From: Escherichia coli
GTDB taxonomy: Bacteria > Pseudomonadota > Gammaproteobacteria > Enterobacterales > Enterobacteriaceae
Direction: 5' to 3' (one strand)
NCBI RefSeq assembly: GCF_003334815.1
Contig: NZ_QOWO01000014.1
Length of the DNA stretch: 64,000 bases
Part shown: in pieces, positions 5,357-16,074 of the stretch
Layout of the letters: each line of letters opens with the position of its first letter
Numbering within the stretch: position 1 is the first letter of the stretch
Notes under the pieces: generated by a model
Database searches by the model: none
Told to the model about the DNA's origin: nothing
What the model saw: the letters and a program-made list of their open reading frames with translations, nothing else
Position numbers and translations under genes: made by a program

Positions 5357-6628
5357 ATGGAAGACGACTGCGACATTATTATTATTGGTGCCGGTATTGC
5401 AGGCACCGCTTGCGCGTTACGCTGCGCGCGAGCGGGTTTATCCGTTTTGTTACTGGAACGCGCTGAAATCCCCGGCAGCAAAAATCTTTCCGGCGGGCGG
5501 TTATATACCCATGCACTCGCGGAACTCCTCCCGCAATTTCATCTGACCGCGCCTCTTGAACGACGCATCACTCACGAAAGCCTTTCCCTGTTAACGCCCG
5601 ATGGCGTAACGACGTTTTCCAGCTTACAGCCCGGCGGTGAATCCTGGAGTGTATTACGTGCACGATTCGATCCGTGGCTGGTTGCCGAAGCCGAAAAAGA
5701 AGGTGTCGAATGCATCCCCGGAGCGACGGTGGATGCACTGTATGAAGAAAACGGCAGAGTCTGTGGCGTTATTTGTGGTGACGATATTCTCCGCGCCCGT
5801 TATGTGGTGCTGGCAGAAGGTGCCAACAGCGTCCTGGCTGAACGTCACGGGTTAGTGACTCGTCCTGCTGGCGAAGCGATGGCGTTGGGGATCAAAGAAG
5901 TGCTGTCGCTGGAAACATCCGCTATTGAAGAACGTTTTCATCTGGAGAATAACGAAGGCGCAGCGTTGCTGTTCAGCGGCAGGATCTGTGATGACTTACC
6001 CGGCGGCGCATTTCTTTATACTAATCAACAAACGCTCTCGTTAGGGATTGTTTGCCCGCTCTCTTCCCTTACGCAAAGTCGTGTTCCGGCAAGCGAGCTG
6101 CTGACTCGCTTTAAAGCGCATCCGGCAGTGCGCCCGCTTATCAAAAACACGGAATCACTGGAGTATGGTGCGCATCTGGTGCCAGAAGGTGGCTTGCACA
6201 GTATGCCGGTGCAATACGCCGGTAACGGCTGGCTGCTGGTGGGCGATGCGTTGCGCAGTTGCGTCAATACCGGAATTTCCGTGCGCGGCATGGATATGGC
6301 GCTGACTGGCGCGCAGGCGGCGGCACAAACGCTGATAAGCGCCTGCCAGCACCGCGAGCCGCAAAATCTGTTTCCGCTTTATCATCACAACGTAGAGCGC
6401 AGCCTGCTGTGGGATGTTCTACAGCGTTATCAGCATGTTCCGGCGCTTTTGCAACGCCCGGGATGGTACCGTACGTGGCCTGCGTTAATGCAGGATATTT
6501 CCCGCGATTTATGGGATCAGGGTGATAAACCTGTTCCACCGCTGCGCCAGTTATTCTGGCATCATTTACGTCGTCACGGCCTGTGGCATCTGGCGGGCGA
6601 TGTTATCAGGAGTCTGCGATGTCTGTAG
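5357..6628 (+). CDS. ygcN: FixC-like FAD-dependent oxidoreductase (ETF-quinone oxidoreductase family), 423 aa
   Basis: N-terminal GxGxxG dinucleotide fold (IIIGAGIAG); trimmed to ATG 5357 (MEDDCDIII...). Confidence 0.85.
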   Translation: MEDDCDIIIIGAGIAGTACALRCARAGLSVLLLERAEIPGSKNLSGGRLYTHALAELLPQFHLTAPLERRITHESLSLLTPDGVTTFSSLQPGGESWSVLRARFDPWLVAEAEKEGVECIPGATVDALYEENGRVCGVICGDDILRARYVVLAEGANSVLAERHGLVTRPAGEAMALGIKEVLSLETSAIEERFHLENNEGAALLFSGRICDDLPGGAFLYTNQQTLSLGIVCPLSSLTQSRVPASELLTRFKAHPAVRPLIKNTESLEYGAHLVPEGGLHSMPVQYAGNGWLLVGDALRSCVNTGISVRGMDMALTGAQAAAQTLISACQHREPQNLFPLYHHNVERSLLWDVLQRYQHVPALLQRPGWYRTWPALMQDISRDLWDQGDKPVPPLRQLFWHHLRRHGLWHLAGDVIRSLRCL

Positions 6629-6879
6629 CCCGTAATCTCTGGCGCGTTGCTGATGCGCCGCACATTGTTCCGGCTGACTCCGTTGAGCGCCAGACGGCAG
6701 AACGGTTGATTAACGCCTGTCCGGCAGGTCTTTTTTCGCTCACACCGGAAGGTAACTTACGTATTGACTATCGCAGTTGCCTGGAGTGTGGCACCTGCCG
6801 TTTGCTGTGCGACGAATCAACACTACAACAGTGGCGCTATCCGCCTTCCGGATTCGGCATCACCTACCGCTTTGGATAA
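6619..6879 (+). CDS. ygcO: FixX-like ferredoxin-like protein, 86 aa
   Basis: Cys cluster CLECGTCRLLCD; overlaps ygcN end by 10 nt. Confidence 0.85.
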   Translation: MSVARNLWRVADAPHIVPADSVERQTAERLINACPAGLFSLTPEGNLRIDYRSCLECGTCRLLCDESTLQQWRYPPSGFGITYRFG

Positions 6880-6895
6880 ATAATAAGGATAATTT

Positions 6896-13291: not shown

Positions 13292-14569
13292 ATGCAACAC
13301 AACTCATATCGCCGTTGGATAACCCTCGCGATAATTAGTTTTAGCGGCGGCGTTAGTTTCGACCTGGCTTATTTACGTTATATTTATCAAATTCCCATGG
13401 CGAAATTTATGGGATTCAGCAATACCGAGATAGGTTTAATAATGAGTACCTTTGGTATTGCGGCCATTATTCTTTATGCCCCCAGCGGCGTTATTGCCGA
13501 TAAATTTTCACACCGCAAAATGATTACTTCCGCGATGATCATTACCGGATTACTGGGTCTGTTAATGGCAACGTATCCACCGCTGTGGGTAATGCTCTGT
13601 ATTCAGATCGCCTTTGCGATAACGACGATTTTAATGCTGTGGTCGGTGTCGATTAAAGCTGCATCGTTGCTTGGCGATCATAGCGAGCAAGGGAAAATTA
13701 TGGGCTGGATGGAAGGGCTGCGCGGCGTCGGTGTAATGTCGCTGGCGGTGTTTACCATGTGGGTCTTTTCTCGCTTTGCACCGGATGACAGCACCAGCCT
13801 GAAAACGGTCATTATCATCTATAGTGTGGTTTACATCTTGTTGGGGATTCTGTGCTGGTTTTTTGTTAGCGATAACAACAACCTGCGCAGTGCCAATAAC
13901 TAAGAAAAACAGTCATTCCAGCTTAGCGACATCCTGGCCGTTTTGCGTATCAGCACCACCTGGTATTGCAGCATGGTGATTTTTGGCGTCTTCACCATCT
14001 ACGCCATTCTGAGTTACTCCACCAACTATCTGACCGAAATGTATGGCATGTCGCTGGTGGCGGCGAGCTACATGGGGATTGTGATCAACAAAATATTCCG
14101 CGCGCTGTGCGGCCCACTTGGCGGCATAATCACCACCTACAGCAAAGTGAAATCCCCTACCCGCGTGATCCAAATCCTTTCCGTACTCGGCCTGCTGACG
14201 TTAACTGCCCTGCTCGTCACGAACTCTAACCCGCAATCGGTCGCGATGGGGATTGGCCTGATTTTACTGCTGGGATTCACCTGTTACGCCTCACGCGGGC
14301 TGTACTGGGCCTGCCCTGGCGAAGCGAGAACACCGTCTTACATTATGGGCACCACGGTAGGTATTTGTTCGGTGATTGGATTCCTGCCGGATGTCTTCGT
14401 TTACCCAATTATCGGCCACTGGCAAGACACCCTGCCCGCTGCAGAAGCCTACCGCAATATGTGGCTGATGGGCATGGCGGCGCTTGGCATGGTGATTGTC
14501 TTTACCTTTTTGCTGTTCCAAAAAATTCGTACTGCTGATAGCGCCCCCGCAATGGCTAGCAGCAAGTAA
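13292..14569 (+). pseudogene. yqcE: MFS transporter gene interrupted by an in-frame TAA (N-terminal 203 aa fragment plus C-terminal fragment)
   Basis: ORFs 13292..13903 and 13943..14569 are in the same frame, separated only by TAA at 13901-13903 and 13 sense codons (...SANN*EKQSFQLSDILAVL...); 203+1+13+208 = 425 codons, the size I recall for intact K-12 YqcE. Confidence 0.8.
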
Positions 14570-14595
14570 GCCAGGAAAATTACAGGAGAAAAATC

Positions 14596-16074
14596 ATGTC
14601 GAAAAAATACATCATAGGGATTGATGGCGGAAGTCAGAGCACAAAAGTGGTGATGTACGATCTGGAAGGTAACGTGGTTTGCGAAGGCAAAGGCTTATTA
14701 CAGCCGATGCACACGCCAGATGCCGATACTGCAGAACATCCTGACGACGATTTATGGGCATCATTATGTTTTGCCGGTCACGATTTGATGAGTCAGTTTG
14801 CCGGGAATAAAGAAGATATTGTCGGTATTGGTCTGGGATCCATCCGTTGCTGCCGTGCGTTATTGAAAGCCGATGGCACGCCTGCTGCGCCGTTGATTAG
14901 CTGGCAGGATGCACGCGTTACACGCCCTTACGAACACACTAACCCTGACGTGGCATATGTCACCTCTTTTTCGGGTTATCTGACGCATCGCTTAACCGGC
15001 GAGTTTAAAGACAATATCGCCAACTATTTTGGTCAGTGGCCGGTGGATTATAAGAGCTGGGCATGGAGCGAAGATGCTGCGGTAATGGATAAGTTTAATA
15101 TCCCCCGTCATATGCTGTTTGATGTGCAAATGCCTAGCACCGTCCTCGGACATATCACACCACAAGCCGCACTGGCGACACATTTCCCGGCAGGACTGCC
15201 GGTTGTTTGTACCACCAGTGATAAACCGGTAGAAGCTCTGGGGGCCGGATTACTGGATGATGAAACGGCGGTAATTTCTCTTGGCACTTACATCGCATTG
15301 ATGATGAACGGCAAAGCACTGCCGAAAGATCCAGTAGCGTACTGGCCGATTATGTCTTCTATTCCGCAAACATTGCTGTATGAAGGTTACGGTATTCGCA
15401 AAGGCATGTGGACGGTGAGCTGGCTGCGCGACATGCTAGGCGAGTCGTTAATTCAGGATGCCAGGGCGCAGGATCTTTCACCGGAAGATTTACTCAACAA
15501 AAAAGCTTCTTGTGTGCCGCCAGGCTGTAATGGTCTGATGACGGTGCTGGACTGGCTGACCAATCCGTGGGAACCGTACAAACGCGGGATTATGATCGGC
15601 TTTGATTCCAGCATGGATTACGCATGGATATATCGTTCGATACTGGAAAGCGTGGCGCTGACGCTGAAGAACAATTACGACAATATGTGTAATGAAATGA
15701 ATCACTTTGCGAAGCATGTGATCATTACTGGCGGCGGTTCGAACAGCGATCTGTTTATGCAGATTTTTGCCGACGTGTTCAACCTTCCGGCACGACGTAA
15801 CGCCATTAACGGTTGTGCAAGCCTGGGGGCAGCGATTAATACAGCGGTAGGTCTGGGGCTATACCCGGATTACGCAACGGCTGTCGATAACATGGTTCGC
15901 GTGAAAGATATCTTTATACCGATTGAGAGCAATGCCAAACGCTACGACGCGATGAATAAAGGCATTTTCAAAGACCTAACCAAACATACTGATGTGATCC
16001 TGAAAAAATCGTATGAAGTGATGCATGGGGAATTGGGGAATGTGGATTCGATCCAGAGCTGGTCGAATGCGTAA
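14596..16074 (+). CDS. ygcE: FGGY-family carbohydrate kinase, 492 aa
   Basis: Full-length ORF MSKKYIIGIDGGSQSTKVV...; 26 nt after yqcE. Confidence 0.9.
   Translation: MSKKYIIGIDGGSQSTKVVMYDLEGNVVCEGKGLLQPMHTPDADTAEHPDDDLWASLCFAGHDLMSQFAGNKEDIVGIGLGSIRCCRALLKADGTPAAPLISWQDARVTRPYEHTNPDVAYVTSFSGYLTHRLTGEFKDNIANYFGQWPVDYKSWAWSEDAAVMDKFNIPRHMLFDVQMPSTVLGHITPQAALATHFPAGLPVVCTTSDKPVEALGAGLLDDETAVISLGTYIALMMNGKALPKDPVAYWPIMSSIPQTLLYEGYGIRKGMWTVSWLRDMLGESLIQDARAQDLSPEDLLNKKASCVPPGCNGLMTVLDWLTNPWEPYKRGIMIGFDSSMDYAWIYRSILESVALTLKNNYDNMCNEMNHFAKHVIITGGGSNSDLFMQIFADVFNLPARRNAINGCASLGAAINTAVGLGLYPDYATAVDNMVRVKDIFIPIESNAKRYDAMNKGIFKDLTKHTDVILKKSYEVMHGELGNVDSIQSWSNA

Follow-up and report, generated by a model that had tools for sequence, protein, structure and literature searches.

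The ygc genes of Escherichia coli form a conserved nutrient-breakdown module whose two divergent operons open with a common leader RNA

In Bacillus subtilis, the PF04309-family regulator GlpP targets glpD, glpFK and glpTQ, and the glpD 5′UTR, a proven GlpP target, combines a promoter, a protein-binding region and an intrinsic terminator in the leader. Electron-transfer flavoprotein (ETF) alpha and beta subunits occur with FixC-like and FixX-like proteins in the FixABCX and YdiQRST sets of E. coli, and in LctBCD the gene of a FAD_binding_4 enzyme lies beside ETF genes. The standard route from a polyol terminus to a ketose phosphate, as in the use of erythritol, threitol and pentitols, runs through a short-chain dehydrogenase (SDR) and then an FGGY kinase, and the SDR KduD oxidizes a CHOH next to a terminal CH2OH. 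Finally, alkyl-dihydroxyacetonephosphate synthase (AGPS/ADPS; PDB 4bby and 2uuu), a flavoenzyme of ether-lipid synthesis, carries FAD_binding_4 and FAD-oxidase_C domains and catalyzes a redox-neutral reaction. The ygc cluster of E. coli resembles each of these systems in part.

We analyzed this cluster in a 64,000-nt stretch of E. coli DNA, hereafter the window. Ten ygc open reading frames were found where a sequence-only reading had placed them, in agreement with the MG1655 RefSeq annotation, with cas3-cysHIJ-queD on the left and a CRISPR array followed by queE on the right. The gene families named in that reading (FixC/FixX, ETF, GlpP, MFS, FAD oxidase, SDR and FGGY kinase) are correct at the family level, and every cluster protein scores under the curated NCBIfam cut-offs. 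Its description of the cluster as uncharacterized also holds, in that the literature searched names no substrate and yielded no report of a phenotype.

The two divergent operons, ygcWUSRQ and yqcE-ygcE, each open with the same terminator/antiterminator leader. The ygcW copy (12994-13072, minus strand), located by a terminator scan and direct reading of the sequence, contains an antiterminator hairpin (GUUACC...GGUAAC) with a purine-rich loop; the hairpin overlaps an intrinsic terminator made up of a 19-bp stem (13005-13046) and then a U9 run. The yqcE copy (13195-13270, plus strand), identified with leader model R1, sequence reading and folding, has an antiterminator of the form AAUUACU...AGUAAU, followed by a terminator and U8. 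Model R1 scores the two copies at 84.3 bits and 58.6 bits (E 1e-8 for the latter) and detects two divergent copies in every Enterobacterales locus; the same element lies upstream of the homologues in every phylum examined. Pairing is 97.3% in the antiterminator helix, where five of seven pairs show compensatory changes, and 99.2% in the terminator helix, where five of ten do; for each helix, none of 500 shuffles matched the observed pairing and covariation score. When 85 leaders were aligned with a model built without the antiterminator helix, that helix was 94% paired with 40 compensatory cells. No Rfam family matches the leader RNA, which is a conserved element not described before.

The candidate regulator of both leaders is encoded by ygcP (6896-7471, plus strand), a GlpP-family RNA-binding antiterminator that matches PDB entries 3kts (E 1e-27) and 1vkf (E 8e-15). 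PF04309 is present in all YgcP homologues, and the leader was found in 57 of the 58 YgcP-bearing loci and in 5 of 25 loci in which YgcP was not detected; four of these five lie on contigs that are cut, and in the fifth case the genome encodes YgcP on a different contig. Exact-motif matches in metagenomes fell within ygc-like clusters in every case (5/5). As in the glpD leader, a weak hairpin displays a purine-rich loop of 13-16 nt (GAGAU..GAG.A.A), and its 3′ arm opens the terminator stem. The ygc system departs from GlpP/glpD in its distinct leader stem (GUUACY/RGUAAC), in the occurrence of the leader in Proteobacteria and Actinobacteria besides Firmicutes, in its absence from Rfam, in its combination with CRP in E. 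coli, and in its targets, which are genes for an SDR, an FGGY kinase, an AGPS-like enzyme, an ETF and transporters. We propose that the predicted transcripts ygcW-ygcU-ygcS-ygcR-ygcQ and yqcE-ygcE would start with a leader of ~75 nt in which a strong intrinsic terminator is the default stop. YgcP, made from the separate ygcNOP unit, would bind a phosphorylated pathway intermediate and stabilize the weak antiterminator hairpin; because the 3′ arm of this hairpin is also the start of the terminator stem, its formation would permit read-through. Plain glycerol-3-phosphate could be the YgcP ligand.

Between the two divergent leaders lies a CRP site, TGTGATTACGATCACA, which is a perfect palindrome (13098-13113, no strand assigned); it is matched exactly only once in the window, and 100 shuffles gave no match. 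CRP ChIP-seq in ETEC gave a peak at ygcW/yqcE (PMC4287617), an in vitro CRP Kd of ~1.7 nM has been reported (PMC12871828), and yqcE-ygcE is among CRP-activated entries (PMC8085971). The two divergent promoters would share a single high-affinity site. Together, the leaders of ygcWUSRQ and yqcE-ygcE and the shared CRP site demonstrably wire seven of the ten genes together. The view of the cluster as a coherent catabolic module is supported. Its predicted regulation by CRP and two YgcP-responsive leader switches is well supported.

The three enzymes of the module point to a short pathway. YgcW (12188-12973, minus strand) is an SDR that resembles KduD and gluconate-5-dehydrogenase and is nearest to KduD (NCBIfam PRK06935, 350.6 bits; cut-off 369). 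YgcE (14596-16074, plus strand) is an FGGY-family kinase of no assigned subfamily; its best NCBIfam scores, XylB (143 bits) and LsrK (133 bits), are both far under cut-off, and its best PDB match is LsrK (E 1e-28). YgcU (10664-12118, minus strand) is an alkyl-DHAP-synthase-like flavoenzyme that shares the FAD_binding_4 and FAD-oxidase_C domains of AGPS, which is its best solved relative (profile E 9e-56). The catalytic Arg419 and Tyr578 and the HHH loop (His615-617) of AGPS align to R262, Y398 and H438-440 of YgcU, which are invariant in alignment A1, and AGPS is the best match in both sequence and fold: the top 31 PDB matches in Foldseek are all AGPS chains, at ~26% identity, although the AF2 model of YgcU is of low confidence (mean pLDDT 65.7). 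Unlike AGPS, whose solved chains have 584-658 residues, YgcU has 484 and is without the N-terminal domain, and it is encoded in a catabolic operon beside a kinase and an SDR.

From enzyme-family resemblance only, we infer three steps. Oxidation of the penultimate CHOH by YgcW would produce a 1-hydroxy-2-ketone, and YgcE would phosphorylate the terminal CH2OH, yielding dihydroxyacetone phosphate substituted at the other carbon. YgcU would then act at the substituted carbon, either removing the substituent to leave a triose phosphate or catalyzing a dehydrogenation. The first two steps follow the order of the KduD/FGGY polyol routes; in contrast to those, the ygc cluster has an AGPS-like flavoenzyme in place of a subsequent isomerase, aldolase or epimerase, and its regulon elsewhere includes transporters of the BCCT or Opu type.

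The transporters bear on the substrate class. YgcS (9233-10642, minus strand) is an MFS protein whose relatives include sugar-porter, organic-cation and NiaP-type carriers, with NCBIfam scores of 181.8 bits (aromatic-acid/H+), 142.1 bits (sugar porter) and 138.6 bits (TIGR00898 cation transporter), all under cut-off; YqcE (13292-14569, plus strand) is an MFS_1 transporter that scores with D-galactonate-type MFS families. Over-expressed ygcS led to more NMN from nicotinamide (PMC8601175). The affinity of YgcS to organic-cation and NiaP-type carriers may be counted in favor of an onium-type substrate. In other phyla, the leader stands directly upstream of BCCT genes (n=5), whose products score below all subfamily cut-offs, of Opu-type ABC operons (n=2) and, in a single case (locus L075), of an MttB-family methyltransferase gene. 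BCCT and Opu systems are transporters of the betaine/choline/carnitine type, and we know of no BCCT, Opu or MttB-family protein that handles neutral sugars; their presence behind the same leader therefore favors a diol with an onium group over an ordinary sugar. The Enterobacterales carriers are MFS proteins, not BCCT or Opu, and halophiles and marine anaerobes may break down a different compound from the one used by enteric bacteria. Uptake would be by YgcS and YqcE in Enterobacterales and by BCCT or Opu systems elsewhere. The substrate is probably a small hydrophilic compound with a terminal, glycerol-like 1,2-diol end joined to a substituent, which in many lineages probably belongs to the quaternary-ammonium type (onium or zwitterionic). 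We give the whole reading, an inducible catabolic module with onium-type diol chemistry under YgcP/leader and CRP control, an even chance of being right.

The sequence-only reading had instead taken the substrate to be a sugar, polyol or sugar acid. Spelled out, this would make the cluster a standard route for a neutral compound of these classes, in which YgcW and YgcE would be an ordinary sugar dehydrogenase and kinase, and YgcU a GlcD/LctD-type 2-hydroxyacid or polyol-phosphate dehydrogenase passing electrons to YgcRQ, YgcNO and quinone. The resemblance of YgcW to KduD and gluconate-5-dehydrogenase, that of YgcE to XylB and LsrK, and the sugar-porter and D-galactonate-type scores of the two carriers all agree with such a pathway. 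So does control by CRP, which is typical of sugar operons; moreover, ETF-using GlcD-family dehydrogenases exist, and LctD (7qh2) is among the matches of YgcU. However, YgcU scores 192 bits with AGPS and at most 127 with glycolate and lactate dehydrogenases, reaches 142.6 against a cut-off of 567.9 for the GlcD equivalog, and retains the AGPS-specific Arg, Tyr and HHH residues rather than the look of those dehydrogenases. The clusters of many lineages are without ETF, and the BCCT, Opu and MttB-family genes behind the same leader also speak against a sugar. This substrate class is thus not specifically supported, and we regard the sugar pathway as possible but rather unlikely.

The remaining genes raise the direction of electron flow. 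ygcN (5357-6628, plus strand) encodes a FixC-like FAD-dependent protein of the ETF:quinone-oxidoreductase type, with best NCBIfam scores for PRK10015 (379.9 bits) and FixC PRK10157 (359.5 bits), both under curated cut-offs; it shares 10 nt with ygcO (6619-6879, plus strand), which encodes a FixX-like ferredoxin (82 bits against a cut-off of 166) with the cysteine pattern CPAG...CxxCxxC. On the minus strand, ygcQ (7619-8479) encodes an ETF alpha of a divergent subfamily, and ygcR (8476-9255), which shares 4 nt with ygcQ and 23 nt with ygcS, an ETF beta. Human ETFA and LctC match YgcQ with E values near 1e-22, and YgcR matches ETF beta chains in the PDB at E 3e-11 or weaker, with weak scores in the NCBIfam ETF-beta families. 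In YgcQ the canonical flavin-site motif SGAIQH is replaced by SGAAAL, as in every cluster-linked ETF alpha of all phyla examined. The ETF genes adjoin ygcU in anaerobes and Enterobacteriaceae and occur mainly in strict or facultative anaerobes, whereas the clusters of many aerobic lineages are without them; YgcN homologues are confined to Enterobacterales loci that also have ETF genes. The description as a third FixABCX-like set therefore stands at the family level, but the ETF is divergent and dispensable in many lineages, and YgcNO is restricted to Enterobacterales. The ygc system further differs from FixABCX, YdiQRST and LctBCD in the loss of SGAIQH and in its AGPS-like partner enzyme, as the partners there are acyl-CoA or lactate dehydrogenases. 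YgcU, unlike AGPS, often has an ETF partner; since the AGPS reaction is itself redox-neutral and would need none, the analogy does not explain the ETF. In the diol reading, oxygen-free re-oxidation of the flavin would pass electrons from YgcU to the dedicated ETF YgcRQ and, in Enterobacterales, on to YgcNO and quinone.

The opposite flow would have YgcNO and YgcQR feed electrons to YgcU, which would reductively cleave a C-N, C-S or C-O bond in the phosphorylated intermediate, beside its ketone, and the compound would serve as an anaerobic electron sink. The other two FixABCX-like sets of E. coli are tied to reductive reactions, and electron delivery of this kind has reportedly been put forward for the pairs FixABCX-CaiA and YdiQRST-YdiO. 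These precedents, the concentration of the ETF in anaerobes and the conserved alteration of the ETF alpha flavin site favor such a flow; carnitine, in addition, up-regulates Fix/Cai (PMC12482172). Against it, many lineages have a core module that functions with no ETF, and the overall redox logic would be mixed, since the proposed order starts with an oxidation by the SDR. We consider this reductive version doubtful.

The module is well conserved. The complete cluster is present in 5061 of 5426 E. coli genomes (~93%), and the queD-queE interval holds it in many Enterobacteriaceae genera. dN/dS across all ten E. coli genes is 0.01-0.24 (ygcN 0.12-0.15, ygcP 0.01-0.04, ygcW ~0.01). A horizontal origin, hinted at by the CRISPR neighborhood, is accordingly not borne out: near-core presence in E. 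coli, synteny across Enterobacteriaceae and purifying selection reject a recent import. The core proteins YgcW, YgcU, YgcE and YgcP have homologues at 43-82% identity in Firmicutes, Actinobacteria, Desulfobacterota and Vibrionaceae (YgcW 65-82%, YgcU 65-75%, YgcP 50-61% and YgcE 43-58% across phyla), with the core found in Enterobacterales, Photobacterium, Sporomusa, Clostridia, Bacilli, Saccharopolyspora and Desulfobacterales. In Halobacillus, the minimal operon is YgcW-YgcE-YgcU-BCCT with a divergent YgcP. Any transfer of the core between phyla is suggested to be ancient only.

In the window, yqcE differs from MG1655 by a G-to-T change that turns codon 204 into a TAA stop (E204*, 13901-13903) and splits the reading frame into two parts in the same frame. 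This base was found in none of 5,016 complete E. coli genomes carrying the segment, and the nonsense codon is private to the window sequence; Photobacterium has an intact YqcE orthologue (58% identity), also preceded by the leader. A cryptic remnant, or one in decay, that has no present function in E. coli and whose ETF and FixCX parts are drifting would fit this premature stop, the ~7% of E. coli genomes with deletions or IS insertions in the cluster, the several-fold faster evolution of YgcQ/R/N/O than of the core and the want of a reported phenotype, but is very improbable given dN/dS far under 1 for all ten genes, intact clusters across phylogroups (O157:H7 and ST131 included), the confinement of E204* to the window, the preservation of the CRP site and both leaders, and the retention across phyla of the odd ETF alpha motif, which indicates specialization rather than decay.

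The ygc genes are therefore a real, conserved nutrient-breakdown module whose core is common to several bacterial phyla, and the leader RNA is a direct handle for identifying its substrate.

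The ten genes that the sequence-only reading placed at 5357-16074 were all recovered in the ORF list, in the translations and in the annotation transferred from MG1655: ygcN, ygcO and ygcP on the plus strand, ygcQ, ygcR, ygcS, ygcU and ygcW on the minus strand, and yqcE and ygcE on the plus strand. By the same annotation transfer, the cluster is flanked on the left by cas3, cysHIJ and queD and on the right by a CRISPR array and queE. The repeat array (16714-17107) lies directly downstream of ygcE; in other Enterobacteriaceae ygcE is followed by queE at a comparable spacing.

A terminator scan identified a 19-bp stem followed by U9, situated 30 nt ahead of the ygcW ATG. 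This belongs to a conserved leader element that is present twice in the window, at 12994-13072 (minus strand) ahead of ygcW and at 13195-13270 (plus strand) ahead of yqcE; a copy was also sought upstream of ygcN within the window and none was found. Homologues of ygcW from Gammaproteobacteria, Negativicutes, Clostridia, Bacilli and one actinomycete have this element ahead of them too. Alignment of 26 leaders by sequence only (MAFFT) gave the consensus GUUACY-AGAG-N5-GAGAAARGUAACUUCC...GGAAGU.RCYUUUCUC-U8, in which two helices can be drawn. The terminator helix is paired in 99.2% of cells, with compensatory changes at 5 of 10 pairs, and the antiterminator helix, formed by GUUACY with RGUAAC, is paired in 97.3% of cells of this alignment, with compensatory changes at 5 of 7 pairs. 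In 500 shuffles per helix, the score for pairing and covariation never rose to the observed one, and shifting the 3′ partner of the antiterminator by 1-3 columns lowered pairing to 19-70%. We also built a covariance model in which only the terminator was specified, and this recovered 85 strong leader instances. In the alignment that resulted, the antiterminator helix, left out of the model, was paired in 94.1% of cells, with 40 compensatory cells; at one pair, for example, 60 leaders have GC and 22 have AU. Again, 0/500 shuffles matched the score of this helix. The two helices are predicted to be mutually exclusive, and covariation supports both. Folding by itself, the antiterminator hairpin has little stability (-1.4 to -6.7 kcal/mol) compared with full leaders that include the terminator (-22 to -36 kcal/mol), a relationship that fits the needs of a protein-dependent switch. 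No covariance model of Rfam 15 matched the leaders in 12994-13270 at E ≤ 1, nor the leaders of three homologous loci in other genomes (L066 from Halobacillus, L064 and L003) at the same threshold, so that the leader adds an RNA motif absent from Rfam. The exact motif was found in metagenomes at five loci, all of them ordinary ygc-like clusters, and thus brought no new regulon members. The region's only weak Rfam match, to naRNA4 (34 bits; gathering score, 59.5), was a REP-like element at 7498-7571. This element separates the convergent genes ygcP and ygcQ and may act as a bidirectional terminator.

The pairing of this covarying switch with YgcP is the chief new item of the analysis. YgcP matches the solved structures 3kts (E 1e-27) and 1vkf (E 8e-15), and the G3P_antiterm domain PF04309 is precomputed on all 120 listed YgcP homologues. 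The leader occurs in 57 of the 58 loci with a detected YgcP but in only 5 of the 25 without; four of these five are cut contigs, and the fifth genome has YgcP on another contig. Conversely, Desulfobacterales clusters have neither YgcP nor the leader. In Bacillus subtilis, GlpP bound to glycerol-3-phosphate disrupts the terminator in the glpD, glpFK and glpTQ leaders (PMC9604022). When we compared the glpD 5′UTR, as printed in Table S4 of that paper, with the ygc leader, the same two-state fold was apparent, and the glpD loop CUGAGAUGAGGAGA resembles the ygc loop AGAGAUAAUGAGAAAG. The two systems have in common a PF04309 regulator, a leader terminator and a competing alternative helix, but the YgcP system is attached to a different pathway from that served by GlpP in the Bacillus glp regulon. 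Because solved GlpP-like proteins are enzyme-like in fold, we considered that YgcP might be an enzyme, a reading that the co-occurring, covarying leader disfavors. Based on the PF04309 assignment, the co-occurrence and the likeness to glpD, we instead regard YgcP and its leader as a putative new antitermination system of the GlpP kind operating on a different pathway. Regulation by a YgcP-dependent leader switch is very probable.

The interval that separates the two E. coli leaders contains a perfect CRP palindrome (13098-13113). A CRP ChIP-seq peak in ETEC coincides with this site at ygcW/yqcE (PMC4287617), the site is among the tightest bound in vitro, at ~1.7 nM (PMC12871828), and yqcE-ygcE is recorded as CRP-activated (PMC8085971). 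The shared leader and the CRP site together argue that seven of the ten ygc genes are co-regulated. ygcNOP form a separate unit, which makes sense for an operon that encodes the regulator.

The neighboring CRISPR array had suggested a horizontal origin, a suggestion that the distribution of the cluster does not support. The window is E. coli chromosome: 5357-16074 matches all 5,426 complete E. coli genomes and is covered over at least 80% of its length in 5,061 of them. The complete cluster is present in ~93% of complete genomes at 95.5-100% identity, including K-12, O157:H7 and ST131, and a minority carry an IS3 insertion or a near-total deletion. Its position between queD/cysJ and queE is the same in Escherichia, Klebsiella spallanzanii, Citrobacter, Pluralibacter, Mixta, Yokenella and Cedecea, and likewise in several Enterobacter species. 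Gene GC (0.455-0.556) and GC3 (0.44-0.62) are ordinary. Compared with orthologues from Citrobacter, Klebsiella and Pluralibacter, all ten genes gave dN/dS values of 0.01-0.24, which are approximate as dS is saturated; constraint is strongest for YgcW, YgcP and YgcU (0.01-0.04) and weakest for YgcN/O/Q/R. Given this synteny, prevalence, purifying selection and ordinary composition, the CRISPR neighborhood is no sign of recent horizontal acquisition, which we reject.

Several local features of this genome were also recorded. cysI and cysJ (1087-4598) are 99.1% and 98.8% identical to MG1655, a divergence of ~1%, and queD, the ygc cluster and everything up to eno (5357-20641) are 99.95-100% identical, which indicates a recombination boundary close to the cysJ/queD junction. 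An in-frame TAA at 13901-13903 (GAA to TAA, E204*), absent from the sequence-only reading, truncates yqcE. It reflects a single G-to-T difference from MG1655, and of 5,016 complete E. coli genomes with this segment not one has the nonsense base; it is either a private mutation, which may be a laboratory-strain change, or a sequencing error, and not a property of the locus. With its annotated start, ygcS (minus strand) is longer by 24 residues, encoded in a stretch (10570-10642) with a G+C-rich hairpin at 10601-10622, and homologue alignments start near the internal Met25 (MNTSPV...); the real start may be at 10570.

A check of phylogenetic distribution placed homologues of the core enzymes far beyond Enterobacterales. 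We tabulated gene content for 80 loci from species-representative genomes and 3 from individual look-ups. YgcW (65-82% identity to the E. coli protein), YgcU (65-75%) and YgcE (43-58%) share a distribution that takes in Enterobacterales, Photobacterium, Sporomusa, Clostridia, Bacilli, Saccharopolyspora and Desulfobacterales, and YgcP (50-61%) is present in most loci. The ETF pair YgcR/Q (27-40%) is found in anaerobes and Enterobacteriaceae, often accompanied by a second FAD_binding_4 oxidase that is missing from E. coli, and YgcN/O are restricted to Enterobacterales. Clusters that have no ETF pair occur in Halobacillus, Thalassobacillus, Virgibacillus, Alkalihalobacillus, Saccharopolyspora, SAR324, Erwinia/Pantoea and some Serratia; in Halobacillus the entire system consists of YgcP and a four-gene operon, YgcW-YgcE-YgcU-BCCT. 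This minimal module, common to several phyla, is newly described here. Among the accessory genes, a member of the proline-racemase/hydroxyproline-epimerase family adjoins the ETF genes in two Bacillota MAGs (L072, 10004-11038; L075, 6997-7995), and in Dethiosulfatibacter (L065) a SurE-type phosphatase (14670-15437) lies between the second oxidase and the BCCT gene.

The transporters of the non-enteric loci bear on the class of substrate. A BCCT-family protein is encoded in 14 loci and an Opu-type ABC system with an OsmF/OpuAC-like binding protein in 7, and separate copies of the leader stand directly ahead of BCCT genes in five cases and of Opu operons in two. In one Bacillota genome (L075) a leader copy is followed by an MttB-family methyltransferase and then by a PanB homologue and Opu genes, and in two further loci genes for a corrinoid protein and a methyl-THF methyltransferase are found near an MttB-like gene. 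The BCCT, Opu and MttB families handle quaternary ammonium or sulfonium compounds, so that an ordinary sugar is an unlikely substrate in these lineages. The leader-linked BCCT proteins (L005, 6737-8374; L054, 16352-18010; L064, 16976-18541; L066, 11596-13188) have a motif common to three phyla, FYW(A/C/S)NW(L/M)AWAP, in which Asn replaces a Trp of the conserved aromatic motif; an unlinked BCCT of the same Halobacillus locus (L066, 16015-17529) has the usual FFWAWWIAWSP. The altered motif suggests a distinct substrate. In E. coli, MFS carriers take the place of BCCT and Opu. YgcS scores against organic-cation-type families as well as sugar porters of NCBIfam; it is 26.5% identical to the niacin/nicotinamide carrier NiaP, and its over-expression raised NMN output from nicotinamide (PMC8601175).

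Profile searches with YgcU identified alkyl-DHAP synthase (AGPS) as its best solved relative (E 9e-56), followed by glycolate and lactate dehydrogenases; in the PDB, glycolate oxidase and LctD match with lower scores than AGPS. PF01565 and PF02913 (FAD_binding_4 and FAD-oxidase_C) are recorded on YgcU cluster representatives, and YgcU falls below the curated GlcD cut-off (TIGR00387, 142.6 bits against 567.9). In a profile alignment to 4bby, with AGPS numbering fixed by the Y578F and R419H mutant chains, AGPS residues Arg419, Tyr578 and His615-617 correspond to YgcU R262, Y398 and H438-440, all of which are invariant in our alignment of YgcU homologues. An AF2 model of YgcU built from a 13-sequence alignment was of low confidence (pLDDT 65.7) and served for fold ranking alone rather than for inspection of the pocket; the first 31 ranks of the fold search were AGPS chains. 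The AGPS N-terminal domain, which is thought to help form the lipid-binding site, was not found in YgcU: the alignment begins at AGPS residue 180 and YgcU residue 24, and YgcU is 484 aa long compared with 584-658 aa for solved AGPS chains. A literature search for biochemical data on acyl-for-alkyl exchange on DHAP esters by YgcU returned none. The AGPS-type catalytic signature of YgcU is new here. The view of the cluster as a catabolic module is partly right, and the proposal of a sugar, polyol or sugar acid as its substrate is not supported by the BCCT, Opu and MttB associations and the AGPS-like YgcU.

None of the ten proteins reaches a curated NCBIfam cut-off, and so no name can be transferred to them. 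YgcW is a near miss to KduD (PRK06935, 350.6 bits against 369; TIGR01832, 276.3 against 338.85), an enzyme that oxidizes a secondary alcohol adjacent to a terminal CH2OH. YgcE homologues contain FGGY_N and FGGY_C domains, and YgcE lies below every equivalog threshold of the characterized FGGY subfamilies, GlpK and AraB among them (best hits: XylB, 143.2 bits against 380; LsrK, 133.2 against 528). YgcN (PRK10015, 379.9 against 466; FixC, 359.5 against 610) and YgcO (FixX, 82.2 against 166) likewise score below threshold and belong with FixC and FixX at the family level only. The homology of YgcQ/YgcR to ETF is clear, with scores far under the equivalog cut-offs. YgcQ has SGAAAL in place of the canonical flavin-site motif SGAIQH, and all cluster-linked ETF alphas have this motif replaced (e.g. 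SGAAAL, SGAAAF, SGTGVF), a conserved replacement which argues that YgcQR is a specialized ETF, first noted here, rather than a decaying one. Some anaerobe and Vibrionaceae clusters have an extra ETF pair with the canonical motif SGS(I/V)QF, retained in two Clostridia loci, together with the second GlcD-like oxidase (L064, 14725-16793; L069, 13620-15523; L005, 14640-16591); E. coli has neither. YgcU may be redox-neutral, as AGPS is, or a net dehydrogenase. Electron transfer is favored by the occurrence of the ETF, which is mostly in strict and facultative anaerobes, and its absence from aerobes argues that the ETF is not intrinsic to the chemistry.

Taken together, the YgcU, YgcW and YgcE families and a regulator family that senses glycerol-3-phosphate point to a route from a diol to a substituted DHAP. 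A terminal 1,2-diol would be oxidized to a 1-hydroxy-2-ketone, the terminal hydroxyl would then be phosphorylated, and YgcU would act on the resulting C-substituted DHAP; such an intermediate is a tentative proposal, somewhat less probable than its absence. Candidate substrates, each of low probability, are the head groups of deacylated betaine lipids or other substituted glycerols. A 'reverse ether-lipid' pathway, not previously known, in which the glycerol moiety is salvaged from water-soluble glyceryl ethers or onium-substituted glycerols, is a more specific version that we consider improbable. Here the SDR and kinase would convert the free diol end of, for example, a deacylated betaine-lipid head group (glyceryl-trimethylhomoserine, GCC) into 1-O-substituted (or 1-onium) dihydroxyacetone phosphate, a product of the AGPS class. 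YgcU would perform the AGPS half-reaction with water, giving DHAP and a quaternary-amine alcohol. Export would dispose of this alcohol or, in anaerobes, MttB-family enzymes would demethylate it, and YgcP would sense the substituted glycerol phosphate. If true, AGPS chemistry would here serve catabolism for the first time, and the abundant betaine lipids of algae and bacteria would have a new sink. More generally, if a substituted DHAP is cleaved catabolically in the AGPS-like step, the flavoenzyme family would gain a new reaction type, and the step could provide a new route of quaternary-amine degradation in gut and marine bacteria. A whole-word search of the literature by gene name returned only omics lists, CRP-site tables, the YgcS NMN engineering and a negative result reported for a ygcU deletion, and a search by pathway keywords returned nothing relevant to the cluster; a paper on quaternary amines in Citrobacter was set aside as it deals with Fix/Cai rather than ygc (PMC12482172).

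These observations offer several ways into the system. The two leader copies and the high-affinity CRP site could be fused to a reporter for inducer screening, the Opu-type binding proteins of other lineages could be used for ligand fishing, and the halophilic Bacilli, with a minimal three-enzyme operon, provide a more accessible system. They would also extend GlpP antitermination, a mechanism explored until now chiefly through the glp regulon of Bacillus, into Proteobacteria and Actinobacteria. Among the y-genes of E. coli K-12 these ten count as better known, and a cluster whose function had been opaque is now a defined experimental problem, reachable through the leader switch.
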